Source: Escherichia coli
GTDB taxonomy: Bacteria > Pseudomonadota > Gammaproteobacteria > Enterobacterales > Enterobacteriaceae
Direction: 5' to 3' (one strand)
Length of the DNA stretch: 64,000 nucleotides
Assembly: GCF_016026235.1 (NCBI RefSeq)
Contig: NZ_CP065613.1
Shown: piece by piece, positions 12,286 to 28,849 of the stretch
Position numbering within the stretch: the first letter of the stretch is position 1
Layout: the number at the start of each line of letters is the position of its first letter
Position numbers and translations under genes: made by a program
The notes under the pieces: model-generated
Told to the model about the DNA's origin: nothing
Databases searched by the model: none
Seen by the model: only the letters and a program-made list of their open reading frames with translations

Positions 12286-12887
<602 letters not shown>

Positions 12888-20427: not shown

Positions 20428-20799
20428 GAATCATCCTGGTCTGAAGAAAAAGCTAGCGATGCAGGGCTTTGCATCTTAAAAATTTCGGTAAATGATACCG
20501 TAAGATGCCTCCCCTGACACGCCAATATCGCAGCATTCAGGTTTGCATCATCCCCGTAATATCGACATGAGACAGACTGACACAACCTGGCTCGTCACTC
20601 GCTAAAAACCAATTATCTTAGTAAGATAGCATCCATATTAGCCATGGTGTAAAACTGCCGTTGGGGTAATGATGATCCATATATCACCCGTTCTGGTGTG
20701 TGAAGCTGACATCATCCATAATCGGCAACGTTGATGCCCTTTGATAGTAATGATGACCGTCAATGTGATTCCCCTGCTGACTGGAGGTCTCCGGATAGT

Positions 20800-21966
20800 A
20801 TGAGTATTACCAACTGCGTTATCGGCCCACTTTACGATGAGCAAATAAAAAAAACACTTATGTATGCTGACCATAAATTCAAGCGGCTAATGAATACACG
20901 AATGTCGTTACTCGAACATTTATCACCCCACTATGACTTATCTTCCATGTTCAGCTATGAGTTGGAGGGAAGAGTTTTTCGGATTAAATTGATCAAGCCT
21001 GAGATTAAATTATCTCGCCAGCAGTTGATCTTCTCCTCACTCTTTTTAGAGCAAGATTTTCTAAAAGAATATAAAAAACACATCTCAAATACTCTACAAA
21101 AAACAATCAAACAGTGCATTAAAAAATACAAACAAAAAATCAAAATCGAGCCTTCTATTTTAGATTACATATCAGCGTCACCCCGCAATACGTCGAGTTA
21201 TGTATTACATGAGATAGTTTCTCAATGTGAACATTGCGATGAAATTCGCAATATTAAAAATGATATATTGCTTGATGAACTAACGTTGAATGGCCGGATC
21301 ACTAACATTTCAAAATACATTAAAAACAGTCAAGATAAAATCGTCGAACATATAGAGTTCTGCACTCATAAACTTGTCAATATAAGTCGTAAGAATCGTC
21401 ACATTTTCAACAGCACCACAATCTCTGGCAGAAAACCCAACATCACTGGTGTTTTACTTTGCCTTTCAGAATTGATAAGCAACCTGCATATTTACCCAAC
21501 TGAAATTAATAATATAAGCAATGCCATAATATTAAGCATTGTATACTCTGTACTTCAACATCTTCAATCCGGAAGAAAAACAGAAAAAACAAAAACCTCT
21601 CCAGCACTGGATTTCATCCCCACCATCATCGCACCTCATGTTTTCTACCTGGCGAAACGCGAAAAATCCTCTCAATATAAATACATTGAAAAAGAATATC
21701 TTCTCGGCCAGTTACTTATATTTTTGATGTATAAAACAGTTTACTACTCGATTCATAACATCAGGGTAAGCCGTAAGCATTTCTATAACGATATAAAACC
21801 AAAATTAATGATACTAAAAAAAGAAAGCTTATTAAGCACCAATTTCATGAAAAATCGAAGAGAGATTAGTGGTGAAGTCTTTGGTGATGTTGGTAGTATT
21901 GAGGCTGATTTTCGAGAAATCAGCACATTGATTCATCGGCGAAAGGCTCTGTTTATTTCCTTTTAA
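20800..21966 (+). CDS. Hypothetical protein, very AT-rich, no recognisable domain (~388 aa from the ATG at 20800; ORF extends to 20731)
   Basis: Long ORF in a strongly AT-rich stretch; Lys/Ile/Asn-rich; SD-like 'ggagg' upstream of the ATG at 20800. Confidence 0.5.
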   Translation: MSITNCVIGPLYDEQIKKTLMYADHKFKRLMNTRMSLLEHLSPHYDLSSMFSYELEGRVFRIKLIKPEIKLSRQQLIFSSLFLEQDFLKEYKKHISNTLQKTIKQCIKKYKQKIKIEPSILDYISASPRNTSSYVLHEIVSQCEHCDEIRNIKNDILLDELTLNGRITNISKYIKNSQDKIVEHIEFCTHKLVNISRKNRHIFNSTTISGRKPNITGVLLCLSELISNLHIYPTEINNISNAIILSIVYSVLQHLQSGRKTEKTKTSPALDFIPTIIAPHVFYLAKREKSSQYKYIEKEYLLGQLLIFLMYKTVYYSIHNIRVSRKHFYNDIKPKLMILKKESLLSTNFMKNRREISGEVFGDVGSIEADFREISTLIHRRKALFISF

Positions 21967-22368: not shown

Positions 22369-23499
22369 ATGTTCGAGAAAATGAAAAACAATGTAACCCG
22401 TATGCCGGGGAATTTAACAAAACTTAATCAATACCAAAAAGACATTGATCACCTGTCTAAACTATTTTCTGAACAGCAATTACTGGAACTAATGACGACT
22501 ACCGAATCCGATCAAATATTGCAAATGAAGCCTGCTGTAGATATTCTTCATGTACTATCTCCATCAGCATCTACTGCTAAGCATATCAATTTTTTTCAGC
22601 ACGTCCCAGTGCTCGAACAATGGTTAAAAAAGGAGTGCACTGCCTTTAATTTACTGGCAGTACATTTCTATTCACAGCAATCCCGTAAAAATGTAATTCC
22701 GAAAGAAATCTGTATGCTACTGGATGCATTTATTGAAACTGAACTTTCATCTGCGGTTAATGGTAATAATAATGCCGAACTCCTTTCTTGTTTTCAAAAC
22801 ACGCTGGATAAAATGTGCAATACACTAACATTTATAGACCACACAGTTACGGAACAATCAGGTCAAGTAGCAATGCTTGATTTCAGCGCAAAAATGCATG
22901 AATATACTGTTGAAATCAGGACCTTTTTGAAGTCTGAATACTGGCTAAACAAACTACCTAAGGATATTAACATTCCAGCCATTGACCTATCCTGGCTTGT
23001 GTTTTGTTACTTTTGCTCTGAATATCTTTTTGTATTTATTCAAACAACGCTCAATACAATGAAGGCAGGAAAAATCATTCGTGATAACTACCTTTATCAT
23101 CCTAAAATGATTGCATTGATCATTTTATCTATGCTGCCTTATGAAGTCATTCATAACGATGGATCACTGAATAAGTTTAAAACGCCTTTAACCAGCCCTG
23201 ATGAGTTCATAATCAAATCTATTTGCATTAAAGGTAAGCAAAACACTACAGGGCATAAAAAAGATATAGAACAATTGCTTCGTAAGACATATATCTATAT
23301 TGCATTACTCTTAAACCCTGAGTGGGCACCATCTTCCAAGGAGTTGATTTCCTTTTTATCAGGAAAGTCCTCAGTGATAAGTGGTTCACTCAACTTCCAG
23401 TCAACCTCCAGTGGTCTGGGTGTTCAAACAAACAATATAACTCTTCTTAAGAATGAGGTTTACTTCGAAAAAATAGCGAACAAGATCATGAAACTGTAG
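22369..23499 (+). CDS. Hypothetical protein, AT-rich, no recognisable domain, 376 aa
   Basis: Long ORF in the same AT-rich stretch; 'gaggataaaatt' SD precedes the ATG. Confidence 0.5.
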   Translation: MFEKMKNNVTRMPGNLTKLNQYQKDIDHLSKLFSEQQLLELMTTTESDQILQMKPAVDILHVLSPSASTAKHINFFQHVPVLEQWLKKECTAFNLLAVHFYSQQSRKNVIPKEICMLLDAFIETELSSAVNGNNNAELLSCFQNTLDKMCNTLTFIDHTVTEQSGQVAMLDFSAKMHEYTVEIRTFLKSEYWLNKLPKDINIPAIDLSWLVFCYFCSEYLFVFIQTTLNTMKAGKIIRDNYLYHPKMIALIILSMLPYEVIHNDGSLNKFKTPLTSPDEFIIKSICIKGKQNTTGHKKDIEQLLRKTYIYIALLLNPEWAPSSKELISFLSGKSSVISGSLNFQSTSSGLGVQTNNITLLKNEVYFEKIANKIMKL

Positions 23500-23642: not shown

Positions 23643-24779
23643 ATGCCTATTCTGGATCTGCGTTTCAGCAACAAATCAATTCACCAACTTCCACATCCCC
23701 TCACGGGTTGTCAGGAATACCGTGATATTCACTGCCAAAACCTGCGTGCTCTGGTGTATCCCAATCGGATCACGCTGGCCTTTCGTGCCACTATAAACAA
23801 TCAGCGTATATATGAAACCCTGGGTCAGTTCCCTCAGCTCTGCGTTGAGGATGCCCGTCAGCATGTGATGAAACTGCTTGCTGATAAAAATCGTCTTGCG
23901 GTTCAGTCCCGTCGATTCACTGTGGAACAGGCCATCAATGACCTGTGGCTACCGGATTTGCAGTTGTATAAAAAGAGTCCTCAGTCAGAGTTGTCAAAAC
24001 TCAACCTCTACGTTCGCCCGTTCTGGGGCAAGCGGCAACTTCGCGACATCACGGCAGGAGAACTAGAACAATATGCTGCTGGCTTACGGGAAAAATTACG
24101 TCCGTCAACAGTAAACCGTATCCTCGCAATATTGTCCAAAATATGCTCTCTGGCAGTACGTGCTGGATGGATCACACATTCCCCGATGTCACATGTCCGC
24201 TATCTGAAAGAAAATAACATTCGCTATCGCACACTGTCAGCGACAGAAATCCCGCGCTTTATTGACGCGGCAACAGCGCTGCAAACACCGGCAGCTGATT
24301 CTATATTGCTTGCTCTTTATACGGGGATGCGTATTGGTGAGGTATGTACCCTGAAATGGGAGTACTGGCACCCGGATATGCATCAACTCATACTGCCTGA
24401 TACAAAGTCCGGACACCCTTTCACCTGCCCACTTGCACCTCCAGCCATTGCAGTTGTCCAGTGCCAGCAGGACCTGATGCTCAGCAAAACTTACATTTTT
24501 CCACAACTAACCGACAATGCCCGCCCTCTGGCATATCCGCGTGCAACCTTTGCCCGTATTTGCCGGGATGCCGACATTGATAACCTGCGGATGCATGACC
24601 TGCGCCGTACCTTTGCCACCCGGGTACTACAGGCGACCGGGGATATTGCAATCGCTTCCCATCTGCTAAATCACCATTCACTCACGGCGACCCGTCGCTA
24701 CGCTTTTCACAATGCAGCGACATCACACGCAGTGGTTTCTCAGGTCATAGAAAGTTATGACACAAAAATGAACCTATGA
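23643..24779 (+). CDS. Tyrosine recombinase / phage-type integrase (second integrase of the island), 378 aa
   Basis: Catalytic-domain pattern 'LYTGMRIGEV...MHDLRRTFATR...LNHHSLTATRRYA' (R..H-x-x-R..Y); SD 'aggaga' before the ATG. Confidence 0.8.
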   Translation: MPILDLRFSNKSIHQLPHPLTGCQEYRDIHCQNLRALVYPNRITLAFRATINNQRIYETLGQFPQLCVEDARQHVMKLLADKNRLAVQSRRFTVEQAINDLWLPDLQLYKKSPQSELSKLNLYVRPFWGKRQLRDITAGELEQYAAGLREKLRPSTVNRILAILSKICSLAVRAGWITHSPMSHVRYLKENNIRYRTLSATEIPRFIDAATALQTPAADSILLALYTGMRIGEVCTLKWEYWHPDMHQLILPDTKSGHPFTCPLAPPAIAVVQCQQDLMLSKTYIFPQLTDNARPLAYPRATFARICRDADIDNLRMHDLRRTFATRVLQATGDIAIASHLLNHHSLTATRRYAFHNAATSHAVVSQVIESYDTKMNL

Positions 24780-24921: not shown

Positions 24922-25050
24922 ATGTATTTAACCATTAAGCAGTTCGCAGAAAGATTTAATCTTTCTGCATCCACGGTTGCGTCAGATATATCGCGCAACC
25001 CCGGAAAACTCCCGCCCTTCATCAGAATTGGGCGGGCTATACGATTCTCT
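24922..25050 (+). pseudogene. AlpA-like helix-turn-helix regulator/excisionase gene truncated by IS1
   Basis: 'MYLTIKQFAERFNLSASTVASDISRNPGKLPPFIRIGRAIRF' resembles AlpA-family phage regulators; reading frame runs into the IS1 terminal repeat at 25051. Confidence 0.55.
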
Positions 25051-25065
25051 GGTAATGACTCCAAC

Positions 25066-25569
25066 TTACTGATAGTGTTTTATGTTCAGATAATGCCCGA
25101 TGACCTTGTCATGCAGCTCCACCGATTTTGAGAACGACAGTGACTTCCGTCCCAGCCTTGCCAGATGTTGTCTCAGATTCAGATTATGTCGCTCAATGCG
25201 CTGAGTGTAACGCTTGCTGATAACGTGCAGCTTTCCCTTCAGGCGTGATTCATACAGCGGCCAGCCATCCGTCATCCATACCACGACCTCAAAGGCCGAC
25301 AGCAGGCTCAGAAGACGCTCCAGTGTGGCCAGAGTGCGTTCACCGAAGACGTGCGCCACAACCGTCCTCCGTATCCTGTCATACGCGTAAAACAGCCAGC
25401 GCTGACGTGATTTAGCACCGACGTAGCCCCACTGTTCGTCCATTTCAGCGCAGACAATCACATCACTGCCCGGTTGTATGCGCGAGGTTACCGACTGCGG
25501 CCTGAGTTTTTTAAGTGACGTAAAACCGTGTTGAGGCCAACGCCCATAATGCGTGCACTGGCGCGACAT
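25066..25569 (-). CDS. insB: IS1 InsB frame (variant isoform)
   Basis: -1 frame overlapping insA within the IS1. Confidence 0.85.
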
Positions 25570-25763
25570 CCGACGCCATTCATGGCCATATCAATGATTT
25601 TCTGGTGCGTACCGGGCTGAGAGGCGGTGTAAGTGAACTGTAGTTGCCATGTTTTACGGCAATGAGAGCAGAGATAGCGCTGATGTCCGGCAGTGCTTTT
25701 GCCGTTACGCACCACGCCTTCAGTAGCGGAGCAGGAAGGACATCTGATGGAAATGGAAGCCAC
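25488..25763 (-). CDS. insA: IS1 InsA (variant isoform)
   Basis: '[37 protein letters not shown]...'. Confidence 0.9.
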
Positions 25764-25936
25764 GCAAGCACCTTAAAATCACCATCATACACTAAATCAG
25801 TAAGTTGGCAGCATTACCCATCTTCAAATGGGAGTACCAGCTCTGTTTTCAACAGACTCATTACTGACTCCGGAAGAAGGAGCGACGGCAGGTCTTGCCA
25901 GTTCGAGACAAATTTCATTGAATAATCCTCATAAAC

Positions 25937-25972
25937 AAAAAACCCGATACGATTAACGTATCGGGGTTTTTA
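25937..25972. terminator. Rho-independent terminator-like hairpin (aaaaaacccgatacg-attaa-cgtatcggggttttt), bidirectional
   Basis: Perfect 10-bp stem flanked by A-run and T-run. Confidence 0.7.
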
Positions 25973-26013
25973 TACATCCGCATAACTATTATTTACAGTT
26001 ATTGGTTTTCTAT

Positions 26014-26256
26014 TTAAATTCTTTCATAATACCCACAGTCCATACAGATAAGCACTGGCGCATTATTTCTTTCACACTGTTCAAGGAATCCAAATAGTTT
26101 TTTAATAGCCTTAATAATTTCTTTCAGTATTTCAGGTAAAAACTCCAGGCTAATATACCCAGAGCGTTTATTATCGGTTATCGATGGCAGTTTTCCTGCT
26201 GAACTTATCAATGTATTACAACTGCCACACTGTGGGCATTTTAAATGCATCCTCAT
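26014..26256 (-). CDS. Small zinc-ribbon protein (two CxxC pairs), 80 aa, AT-rich
   Basis: 'CPQCGSC' near the N-terminus and 'CMDCGYY' near the C-terminus. Confidence 0.45.
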   Translation of the reverse strand: MRMHLKCPQCGSCNTLISSAGKLPSITDNKRSGYISLEFLPEILKEIIKAIKKLFGFLEQCERNNAPVLICMDCGYYERI

Positions 26257-26286
26257 TCTCCATATTTATAGTTTGCTAAAAAGTAG

Positions 26287-27486
26287 TCACATCTGCTTCG
26301 TAGCCGCAGTATTCAGAAGCAGGTCAGTCACTCCCTGCCCTGTCTGACGCATACGTTCCGGTGTTAATTTCGCGTAACGTTCTGTACTCTGAATACTGGC
26401 ATGCGCCAGTTGGGCTTTAACGTCATACAGGCTGAATTGACCACTCGAAACCAGTAAAGAGGCAACAGAATGACGTGTGGTGTGAAAACAGACTTCATTC
26501 TTGTCTATACCGCACTGTGCCAGTATTTTTTCATATGCCCATCGGGGTTCCGATATCGGTTTTCCATTATCCTTAATGGCGAACAGATACGGATTACTGC
26601 CAACTCGTGGGATAGCATCAATAATCGATAATGCGGCATCGCTTAGATATACCGTCCGACTGCGACCATTTTTTGTATAAGGAATGAACAGAGTACGATT
26701 GGCCCGGTCGATATGTTCATGCCTGACATTAAGCATTTCTGATTTGCGTGTACCGGTTAACAACAACATGGCTATCAATCCCCCGGCAGCTTTGTTGGGA
26801 TATTGGGTAGCAGCGTCAAGAATGCGCCTGATCTCATCAGCATCAAAAAAGCGCGTCCGCTGATTATTCTCTTTCAGTAAAGGGATCTTATCGGCTTCAT
26901 TCTTTTCCAGCACATCCTGTCGCAACGCATAACGCCCCATCGTTTTCAGAATAGCAAGGGCTCTGTTACAGGTAGACGGCGCATATTGCTGCCCGTGAAT
27001 ACGCCCCTCCAGCATGTCAAACAGCACCTGTTGTATCTCTCTGGCCCTGAGATCGCAGTAACGTATCTTTCCCAGACGAGGTTCAATGTATTGCGTGAAA
27101 CGCTGAACATCCTTATCCCAGGACTTTTTATGGCGTTTGATGAACGGAACATAGGTCTGGTGAAAAAACTCACTAAGTGTTGGCATCGCACGATAATTAT
27201 CGCGTTCTGCTTTAGGGTCATTTCCCAGTGCAATCGCCTCCTTATGACGGCGAGCTATCTGGCGAGCTGTCCCCACATCAATTTCAGGGAATCTGCCAAT
27301 ACTGATACTTTTTTTGGTACCGTGGAATGTGTAGCGCAGGAGGAAACGTTTGTTACCCGTTCGACCTGAGAGACATTTGAGGCCAATAACTTCGGTATCA
27401 GATACCTCAAGCTCTGTAGATCTGGTATCTGTGTTTGCCGGAAGGGCTTTGATGGATGAATTGGTGAATCGGAAGGATTTTTGCAT
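26287..27486 (-). CDS. int: P4-type tyrosine integrase (tRNA-proximal integrase of the island); probable start at the Met at 27486, ORF extends to 27516
   Basis: 'LLLTGTRKSEMLNVRHEHI' and 'CFHTTRHSVASLL...STERYAKL' catalytic motifs; N-terminal 'FTNSSIKALP' arm-binding region; 'gaggat' SD before the ATG at 27486. Confidence 0.85.
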   Translation of the reverse strand: MQKSFRFTNSSIKALPANTDTRSTELEVSDTEVIGLKCLSGRTGNKRFLLRYTFHGTKKSISIGRFPEIDVGTARQIARRHKEAIALGNDPKAERDNYRAMPTLSEFFHQTYVPFIKRHKKSWDKDVQRFTQYIEPRLGKIRYCDLRAREIQQVLFDMLEGRIHGQQYAPSTCNRALAILKTMGRYALRQDVLEKNEADKIPLLKENNQRTRFFDADEIRRILDAATQYPNKAAGGLIAMLLLTGTRKSEMLNVRHEHIDRANRTLFIPYTKNGRSRTVYLSDAALSIIDAIPRVGSNPYLFAIKDNGKPISEPRWAYEKILAQCGIDKNEVCFHTTRHSVASLLVSSGQFSLYDVKAQLAHASIQSTERYAKLTPERMRQTGQGVTDLLLNTAATKQM

Positions 27487-27566
27487 ATTTATCCTCATGT
27501 ATCTGATTGATATCATGGAGATAATATATATCTGAAGGTGTTTTTATTACGGGGCAGGATTGAAGA

Positions 27567-28307
27567 ATGGAAAAGCTATTAGACGCGTACAAACGGATAT
27601 TACAGGAAGTTGACGCCCAGTCATTTAACCTGAATGAGGATAAATACTCAGGCGTCTTTTTACCCGTGCCCTTTGAAGAATACTGGCACTCACCGGTAAA
27701 AATCATACTGGTTGGACGTGAAACCGCTGGCTGGAATACTCTGAATGGTAAGAACACGATATCACGGGTGCTGGGACTTATACCTGACGTCACCATCGGG
27801 CAGGTGGTTGGAGAGGCTGTAGATCGTTACAGGAATCATCTTCCGGTACAAAATGATGGCACCACGAACCTCAAATCACGTAGCCGCTTCACGCAGTATC
27901 ATTTCCGGCTGGCCCGGGAGCTTAATATTCCTCCTCAGGCTATCGTGTATGCCAATCTACTGGCGTGGGATTACGACGGACTGACCCCTCTCAATCGCCC
28001 TCAAAATGAAGTGCAGGAAGTTATATTAGCCTCGCTGAAGCTGCTGGCGGTACAAATTAAACACCTTGAGCCTGATTTCATCATCTTTGCATCCGGAGCC
28101 CGGAGAACAGACTACATCATAAAACAGGTGCTTACTGAGCTGGGCGGCTATGAGACTTCTGCAGTCATTCCGGGGAAGCTATGGGAGTTCAAAACAGGTA
28201 ATGCAATCTGTTTCAGAATTGCCCATCCACGGGCTATGCGCGGACACCAGAAGTACAGAGATGAGGTGATTGCACGAATTAAGCAACTTTGTACTCAGGG
28301 TGGCTAG
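27567..28307 (+). CDS. Hypothetical protein, 246 aa; weak resemblance to a uracil-DNA-glycosylase-like fold
   Basis: ORF between the integrase and the tRNA; 'KIILVGRETAGW' and 'IAHPRAMRGH' loosely resemble UDG motifs A and B. Confidence 0.5.
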   Translation: MEKLLDAYKRILQEVDAQSFNLNEDKYSGVFLPVPFEEYWHSPVKIILVGRETAGWNTLNGKNTISRVLGLIPDVTIGQVVGEAVDRYRNHLPVQNDGTTNLKSRSRFTQYHFRLARELNIPPQAIVYANLLAWDYDGLTPLNRPQNEVQEVILASLKLLAVQIKHLEPDFIIFASGARRTDYIIKQVLTELGGYETSAVIPGKLWEFKTGNAICFRIAHPRAMRGHQKYRDEVIARIKQLCTQGG

Positions 28308-28491
28308 AGCATTACAGCTTGCTCAGCGGCCCCCTTCCCGGAAGCGTACCGGAAAACAGGCAAAGCGGCCTGGTTCTCTATGCTGGAAGCGACACGTTCG
28401 ATTCGGCATTGCCAGGCTGAAGATTGCAGCTCATCGCACCCCGTGAGCACAGGATATGCACAGGACATGAATTTCAGGCACAAAAAAACCA

Positions 28492-28520
28492 CCCGGAGGT
28501 GGTTTCACGACACTGCTTAT
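28492..28520 (-). terminator. Rho-independent terminator of the glyW-cysT-leuZ tRNA operon
   Basis: Minus-strand hairpin 'gaaaccacctccgggtggttt' followed by a T-run, directly 3' of tRNA-Leu. Confidence 0.8.
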
Positions 28521-28546
28521 TGCTTTGATTATTCTTGTCTTTCCCA

Positions 28547-28633
28547 TGGTACCCGGAGCGGGACTTGAACCCGCACAGCGCGAACGCCGAGGGATTTTAA
28601 ATCCCTTGTGTCTACCGATTCCACCATCCGGGC
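28547..28633 (-). tRNA. leuZ: tRNA-Leu (anticodon UAA), 87 nt
   Basis: Minus-strand sequence gcccggatggtggaatcggtagacacaagggattTAAaatccc...gggtacca; long variable arm and CCA end. Confidence 0.95.
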
Positions 28634-28645
28634 TCGGGAAGAAAA

Positions 28646-28719
28646 TGGAGGCGCGTTCCGGAGTCGAACCGGACTAGACGGATTTGCAATCCGCTACATA
28701 ACCGCTTTGTTAACGCGCC
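28646..28719 (-). tRNA. cysT: tRNA-Cys (anticodon GCA), 74 nt
   Basis: Minus-strand sequence ggcgcgttaacaaagcggttatgtagcggattGCAaatccg...cgcctcca. Confidence 0.95.
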
Positions 28720-28773
28720 AAATTCTTCAGGCCTTTCAGCCAGACATCCGCTTGACGCCGATGTCTTTTAAAC

Positions 28774-28849
<76 letters not shown>

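Follow-up and report, generated by a model that had tools for sequence, protein, structure and literature searches.

What is the protein encoded between a tyrosine integrase gene and a tRNA-Leu gene at the edge of an Escherichia coli island, and what does it do for the element or the host that carries it? The stretch of DNA analysed here, called the window below, comprises 64,000 nucleotides of contig NZ_CP065613.1 (assembly GCF_016026235.1). The original prediction placed a 246-aa open reading frame (ORF) between integrase and tRNA, reading toward the tRNA, and it was found exactly so (Table 1). The ORF starts with ATG, has an AGGA Shine-Dalgarno sequence 7 nt upstream, is divergent from the integrase gene at a distance of 50 bp, and points toward tRNA-Leu(taa) (28547..28633, minus strand). 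This tRNA gene belongs to a tRNA-Leu(taa)/Cys/Gly cluster (28547..28849, minus strand) that is followed by pgsA, uvrC and uvrY, and the locus is E. coli leuZ. A promoter scan of 27300-28700 found no sigma-70-like site. An antisense ORF of 129 aa (27407..27796), which covers the beginning of this frame from the other strand, was treated as spurious.

Table 1. Features of the island and of its UDG gene, in window coordinates
Feature	Position	Strand	Basis or remark
Distal att repeat; the 3' 56 bp of tRNA-Leu occur here a second time	59..114	.	direct repeat; far island end
IS1 copy at the deletion junction	25045..25820	.	comparison with the intact pipolin in L002
80-aa Cys-rich ORF (CxxC...CxxC) in the att-proximal module	26014..26256	-	ORF; within the conserved block
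Tyrosine integrase, 409 aa, att-proximal	26287..27516	-	ORF; IntSXT of the pipolin literature
UDG-superfamily gene, 'pipolin UDG' (246 aa)	27567..28307	+	ORF, fold and profile evidence, purifying selection
Strand beta1 and motif A, K45-W56: KIILVGRETAGW	27699..27734	+	conservation; AF2 strand 46-50
Strand beta2 ending in N130 (IVYAN-LLAWDY), base-contacting Asn position	27942..27974	+	N130 64/65; aligns with N89 of T. thermophilus UDGA
Strand beta4 and motif B, C215-H227: CFRIAHPRAMRGH, with H220-P221	28209..28247	+	conservation; alignment to 4zbx (HPAA) and 1ui0 (HPAY)
att repeat, tRNA end; 56 bp are the 3' part of tRNA-Leu(taa), island boundary	28547..28602	.	exact repeat at 59-114

A pipolin that has lost its polymerase

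The exact 56-bp direct repeat bounds an island of about 28.5 kb (window 59-28602), and homology to pipolins integrated elsewhere ends at 28601-28606, at the tRNA end of this island. Pipolins are recognised by integration at tRNA-Leu between att direct repeats and by a core synteny of integrase-orphans-DUF2787-piPolB; site and repeats were found in the window, and the full core synteny in related loci. The comparison was made with the locus L002 of a closely related E. coli genome; it runs from attL (tRNA-Leu), the UDG gene, the integrase, two orphan genes and DUF2787 onwards to an 866-aa 'DNA polymerase', an HTH gene and a second integrase, followed by a type I restriction-modification (RM) system, DUF262 genes and Hhe. 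The 866-aa polymerase is the primer-independent PolB (piPolB) of pipolins. The order piPolB...DUF2787-orphans-integrase-UDG-tRNA-Leu is kept in loci L002, L016, L018, L019, L021 and L022. The arrangement agrees with published pipolins in its site, a tRNA-Leu gene flanked by pgsA and yecA, in having two recombinases and DUF2787, and in its cargo (hhe, HEC-06, type I RM and PDC-S12).

In the window an IS1-bounded deletion took piPolB, DUF2787 and one orphan gene, and cut the second orphan gene to its first 33 codons (25918..25820). Since tblastn found nothing of piPolB in the window, the element is a piPolB-less pipolin derivative: an att-bounded pipolin at leuZ whose hallmark polymerase was lost via an IS1 deletion. 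The 80-aa Cys-rich ORF, which has no PADLOC or NCBIfam match, looks zinc-ribbon-like from its sequence and may be an 'orphan' pipolin core gene or an excision factor.

The cargo of the island comprises Hhe, a HEC-06-like DUF262 pair and a type I RM/PDC-S12 system. The hhe gene, which codes for an anti-phage helicase, is present as two ORFs (2076..4355 and 5088..8600) and is interrupted by a second IS1 copy (91% identical) at 4341-5111, so that hhe is probably inactive in this island. Part of a third IS1 is found at 12512-12887. Two uncharacterised pipolin cargo ORFs on the plus strand, 20731-21966 (411 aa) and 22369-23499 (376 aa), separate the type I RM operon from the second integrase, which is of the IntP2 type (23643-24779); both ORFs are hypothetical in RefSeq and have no PADLOC or NCBIfam match.

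The UDG gene itself has been seen before. Pipolin papers report a frequent UDG at the 'right end' of pipolins in tRNA-Leu, the described site being the tRNA-Leu between pgsA and yecA, in synteny with a tyrosine recombinase (Redrejo-Rodriguez 2017, PMC5695915; Flament-Simon 2020, bioRxiv 10.1101/2020.04.24.059261; ExplorePipolin, PMC9710591; NAR 2024, PMC11551731). The window shares the site, the att repeats, the recombinases and the hhe/HEC-06/type I RM/PDC-S12 cargo with these elements, whereas published pipolins carry piPolB and the window element has lost it. The gene in the window is almost certainly this same 'UDG' of E. coli pipolins. It was called unknown in the original prediction; being listed in the pipolin papers and labelled 'Uracil-DNA glycosylase-like domain-containing protein' among its cluster members in UniRef, the protein is not unknown in name. 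The 'type-4 UDG' label used in the same four papers is an automated annotation given without analysis or assay. No functional test of the pipolin UDG was found in the pipolin literature, and the DefensePredictor paper names UDG in a figure legend only, with nothing specific to this gene.

Fold, active-site motifs and family placement

Taken singly, the UDG sequence has no match in Pfam, NCBIfam, PADLOC (version 2, a database older than the discovery of Brig1) or the PDB sequences, and its single match in PHROGs is the unannotated family phrog_29550. No phage relative of the gene was found by tblastn in 50,697 phage genomes; the PHROG match notwithstanding, it is thus not a gene that phages typically carry. 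When 1.84 billion representatives were searched exhaustively with phmmer, 220 clusters were returned at E<=1e-3; at 50% identity the family numbers about 220 clusters. With the family profile, hmmsearch against the PDB returned the S. tokodaii family-4 UDG 4zbx (E=1.3e-5), in an alignment that pairs HPRA with HPAA at the HP motif. The Pfam UDG profile PF03167 matches 4/65 family members at E<=1e-3 and 25/65 at E<=0.1. The AF2 model, built from an alignment of 65 sequences with 22-64% identity to the query (A1), has a pLDDT of 94.3 and a pTM of 0.92 and predicts the alpha/beta/alpha fold with central parallel sheet that families 1-6 of the UDG superfamily have in common. Its top Foldseek matches in the PDB belong exclusively to this superfamily (probability 1.0) and include UdgX, the T. 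thermophilus family-4 UDG, SMUG1 and TDG. The proposal of a divergent UDG-superfamily protein is thus borne out by the family profile, PF03167 and AF2/Foldseek, the structure check that it had called for giving a UDG fold and no confident unrelated family. We consider membership of the UDG superfamily very probable.

The conserved positions point in the same direction. In the A1 alignment G50 and P169 are kept in 65/65 sequences, W56, N130, S156, F174, W206 and H220 in 64/65, E52, R217 and P221 in 63/65, and F108 in 59/65. The first reading had rested on a loose resemblance of two segments, KIILVGRETAGW (residues 45-56) and IAHPRAMRGH (residues 218-227), to UDG signature loops; since key residues of both are near-invariant in the alignment, the resemblance is not due to chance, and the two segments are motif A and motif B of the superfamily. 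In the AF2 model the motif A loop G50-R-E52-T-A-G-W56 comes directly after strand 46-50, which is the superfamily layout, and H220-P221 follows strand 213-218, just as the His-Pro or Asn-Pro of motif B comes behind the last core strand. Since strand 46-50 ends at G50, E52 stands two residues past the beta1 glycine. Family 1 UDGs have Asp as the catalytic residue two positions after this glycine (GQD); in families 2 and 3 the same catalytic position is occupied by Asn (GIN, GMN). Alignment by hhalign with T. thermophilus UDGA, whose sequence was confirmed as 1ui0, pairs N130 with N89, H220-P221 with H155-P156, and the PD-IIF-G strand with PQIIVPLG; an extension of low confidence pairs VGRET with VGEGP, which agrees with the placement of E52. 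The gene is under purifying selection, with dN/dS of 0.07-0.31 against orthologues of five other genera (Franconibacter, Enterobacter, Citrobacter and Buttiauxella among them). The product is probably an active glycosylase.

The family-4 identity given in the pipolin papers was ruled out by the missing Fe-S cysteines and the variant motif A. The four Cys ligands of the family-4 4Fe-4S cluster are absent from the A1 alignment, which also has no N-terminal CxxC; recurring cysteines are limited to two positions, 215 (C215, 50/65) and 133 (30/65). With no four conserved cysteines, a 4Fe-4S cluster is not expected. The family-4 motif A, GE[AG]PG, is absent as well: the protein reads VGRETAGW, with the motif-A Glu shifted by one position and no Pro-Gly. 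Compared with the family 4/5 structures (T. maritima TM0511 1l9g, T. thermophilus UDGA 1ui0 and UDGB 2d3y, and S. tokodaii 4zbx), the pipolin UDG differs in its motif A of the form G-[RQK]-E-[TP]-x-x-W and in carrying a conserved N-terminal helix. Family 4 has a short loop after motif A, whereas the pipolin UDG has an insertion of about 50 residues (57-105) with two helices. The family-3 enzyme SMUG1 has Asn at the catalytic position where the pipolin UDG has Glu, and none of the SMUG1 sequences of the PDB was matched by the family profile at a threshold of E<=10. The structure is roughly equidistant from families 2-5, so that the pipolin UDG forms a family of its own.

UDG-fold glycosylases with an antiviral role, to which the original prediction referred, do exist in the form of Brig1 and Brig2. 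Brig1 is a DNA glycosylase that acts on alpha-glucosyl-hmC and protects against T-even phages (Nature 2024, PMC11078745). It resembles the pipolin UDG in its UDG fold, in having the S. tokodaii family-4 UDG as its closest solved relative, in requiring an Asn for function, and as a stand-alone gene in defence islands (PMC11078745). It differs in its motif A, GLNPG, in a different arrangement (LNFELYPWHS), and in having 42 homologues, mostly from Actinobacteria (PMC11078745). A closer relationship was rejected, since hhalign of the family alignment against Brig1, with the Brig1 sequence taken from OCR text of the paper's supplement, gave a probability of 0.1% and E=0.74. Brig2 is an integron-borne UDG-like glycosylase directed against phages with modified thymidine, and its gene, too, stands alone, is linked to mobile elements and is widespread among Proteobacteria (bioRxiv 10.1101/2025.10.29.685425). 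Its homologues, compared with the pipolin UDG from the published description, also occur in Bacillota and Bacteroidota (bioRxiv 10.1101/2025.10.29.685425); the named source organisms of the pipolin UDG family are all proteobacteria, mostly gammaproteobacteria. Brig3 was dismissed as a relative because it has an AAG-like fold and not a UDG fold. Within the UDG superfamily, the pipolin UDG is better assigned to a new family that lacks the Fe-S cluster than to family 4. The 'type-4 UDG' label of the pipolin literature should therefore be corrected, whichever function holds.

These features lead us to a proposed function to which we give even chances: the protein would be the Fe-S-less UDG-superfamily glycosylase of pipolins that excises non-canonical pyrimidines from the DNA of invading phages. 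The target pyrimidine would be flipped from the DNA so as to enter a pocket made up of the motif A loop after strand 1 (G50 to W56), N130 and H220-P221. There E52 would take the water-activating role that Asp or Asn has in families 1-3, and H220 would stabilise the leaving base. As expected of a monofunctional glycosylase, the product would be an abasic site, without strand cleavage. The substrate would be uracil, or a 5-substituted uracil or cytosine, in the invading phage DNA. Plain excision of uracil would fit the conserved Asn and His just as well.

Retention of the gene and its possible roles within the element

That last point bears on the main alternative, in which the protein would serve to maintain the element: as a uracil-DNA glycosylase of the ordinary kind, it would remove uracil from pipolin DNA made by piPolB. 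A conserved Asn/His pair is typical of uracil-recognising UDGs, the pipolin papers group UDG with replication and repair ('nucleic-acid metabolism') genes, and piPolB bypasses abasic sites, which are what a glycosylase produces. The position of the gene in the conserved core, next to integrase and att and syntenic with piPolB across genera, favours the same view. Block 25819-28602 contains the 80-aa Cys-rich ORF, the genes for integrase and UDG, and att. It is conserved at leuZ in five further genera (Franconibacter, Enterobacter, Citrobacter, Buttiauxella and Shimwellia) with a nucleotide identity of 86-92%, and outside the block the sequence differs. In these five genera and in Escherichia the integrase has 93-100% identity and keeps its synteny with the UDG gene.

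The genome counts speak against this alternative. The UDG gene is present in 531/5426 complete E. coli genomes (80-99.9% nucleotide identity), in all of which it is annotated 'hypothetical protein'. The adjacent integrase was found in 443 complete E. coli genomes (356 with the full length) and piPolB in 296, so that the UDG gene is retained in about 235 more genomes than piPolB; the window with its deleted piPolB is such a case. From this order of frequencies it follows that the UDG gene is kept once the element cannot replicate, and its persistence without replication and mobility genes argues against a role limited to pipolin replication. By these counts the UDG gene is also the most persistent piece of decaying pipolins. 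In strain FDAARGOS_943 (L001, NZ_CP065615.1, 17385-22138) the pipolin integrase is interrupted by IS2 and a P2-like prophage with its own integrase comes directly after the UDG gene; this arrangement is consistent with a published note that prophages co-integrate beside truncated pipolins.

Other points weigh against element maintenance as well. E. coli encodes Ung and Mug, and repair of its own DNA is already provided for by these enzymes. Homologues outside pipolins have no polymerase nearby, the hallmarks of family 4 are absent, and some relatives occur with a partner gene or a fused domain (see below), an architecture that is not seen in repair UDGs. We therefore regard this alternative as unlikely; if it did hold, the enzyme would show how pipolins maintain DNA that is made by an error-tolerant polymerase.

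The neighbourhood of the integrase raises another alternative, namely that the protein is an accessory to integration or excision, a UDG-fold DNA-binding protein whose catalysis is irrelevant and which works with the adjacent integrase at att. In the enterobacterial clade the gene always lies 50 bp from the same integrase, divergent and next to att, and it is retained together with the att end. Against this, the catalytic-type residues are near-invariant even in many members without an integrase nearby, and the gene occurs in more genomes than the integrase does. To our knowledge there is no precedent for a UDG-fold recombination directionality factor, which weakens this alternative further, and we consider it improbable.

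Neighbourhoods outside E. coli and a possible role in defence

The defence reading, in which the glycosylase acts on foreign DNA, draws on the wider family. For the genome scan for UDG homologues, the query was the closer alignment. Named members come from Enterobacterales, Pseudoalteromonas, Marinobacter, Stutzerimonas, Pseudomonas and others, and homologues were found on thirteen plasmids. Where the gene occurs outside pipolins, it has usually been inserted on its own. In Proteus the homologue adjoins Mrr and a type I RM system, in Pectobacterium Mrr_cat and PDDEXK_4, and on a metagenomic contig a DUF4011/Hhe helicase; in Marinobacter it is located between Azaca ZacABC and PDC-S36/PD-T4-1-like genes, and on a Kosakonia plasmid near VapBC and a KAP-type NTPase. 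At other loci the neighbours are not obviously defensive.

An anti-foreign-DNA role is favoured by these repeated defence neighbourhoods, by the sporadic and horizontally transferred distribution, by the presence of Ung and Mug for repair in E. coli, and by the precedent of Brig1 and Brig2. The location of the gene argues in the other direction, as it is in the conserved core by integrase and att, whereas the defence genes of pipolins are, according to the pipolin literature, usually found in the exchangeable cargo module. By analogy with the Brig enzymes we tentatively propose, at slightly less than even chances, that the primary role of the pipolin UDG is in anti-phage defence. It would then add a Brig-like layer to the Hhe, the HEC-06-like DUF262 pair and the type I RM/PDC-S12 system of the island. 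About 10% of complete E. coli genomes carry the gene, and if it is antiviral, it would be a common and unrecognised defence determinant of Enterobacteriaceae that current defence finders miss, and a third UDG-fold lineage beside Brig1 and Brig2.

A part of the family has a feature that the window lacks. In one clade, at about 55% identity, a gene for a 109-aa partner protein lies immediately upstream of the UDG gene; the clade includes Stutzerimonas, Marinobacter, Pseudoalteromonas, Halopseudomonas, Methylotuvimicrobium and others. The partner gene abuts or overlaps the UDG start codon in several loci, and in six proteins the partner domain is fused to the UDG N-terminus; no homologue of the partner was found anywhere in the window. 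A further alternative, which we think improbable, is a toxin/immunity-type pair: the partner would restrain a glycosylase able to damage cellular DNA, as might serve abortive infection, and the copy in E. coli would be an orphan that lacks the partner and is possibly attenuated.

A more elaborate form of the defence reading makes use of the same partner. The pipolin UDG would be an antiviral family of a 'Brig4' type with its own substrate, regulated by an EsaG-like partner in some lineages and coupled to piPolB in intact pipolins, which is a speculative and on balance unlikely extension. Its substrates would be found, for instance, in phages with uracil-DNA or hypermodified thymidine, and the regulator would be the EsaG-like 109-aa protein or the fused domain. 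The glycosylase would riddle the invading DNA with abasic sites, and the abasic-tolerant, primer-independent piPolB would let the element or the host replicate past collateral damage. The partner and fusion architecture offers a concrete handle on the regulation of the enzyme.
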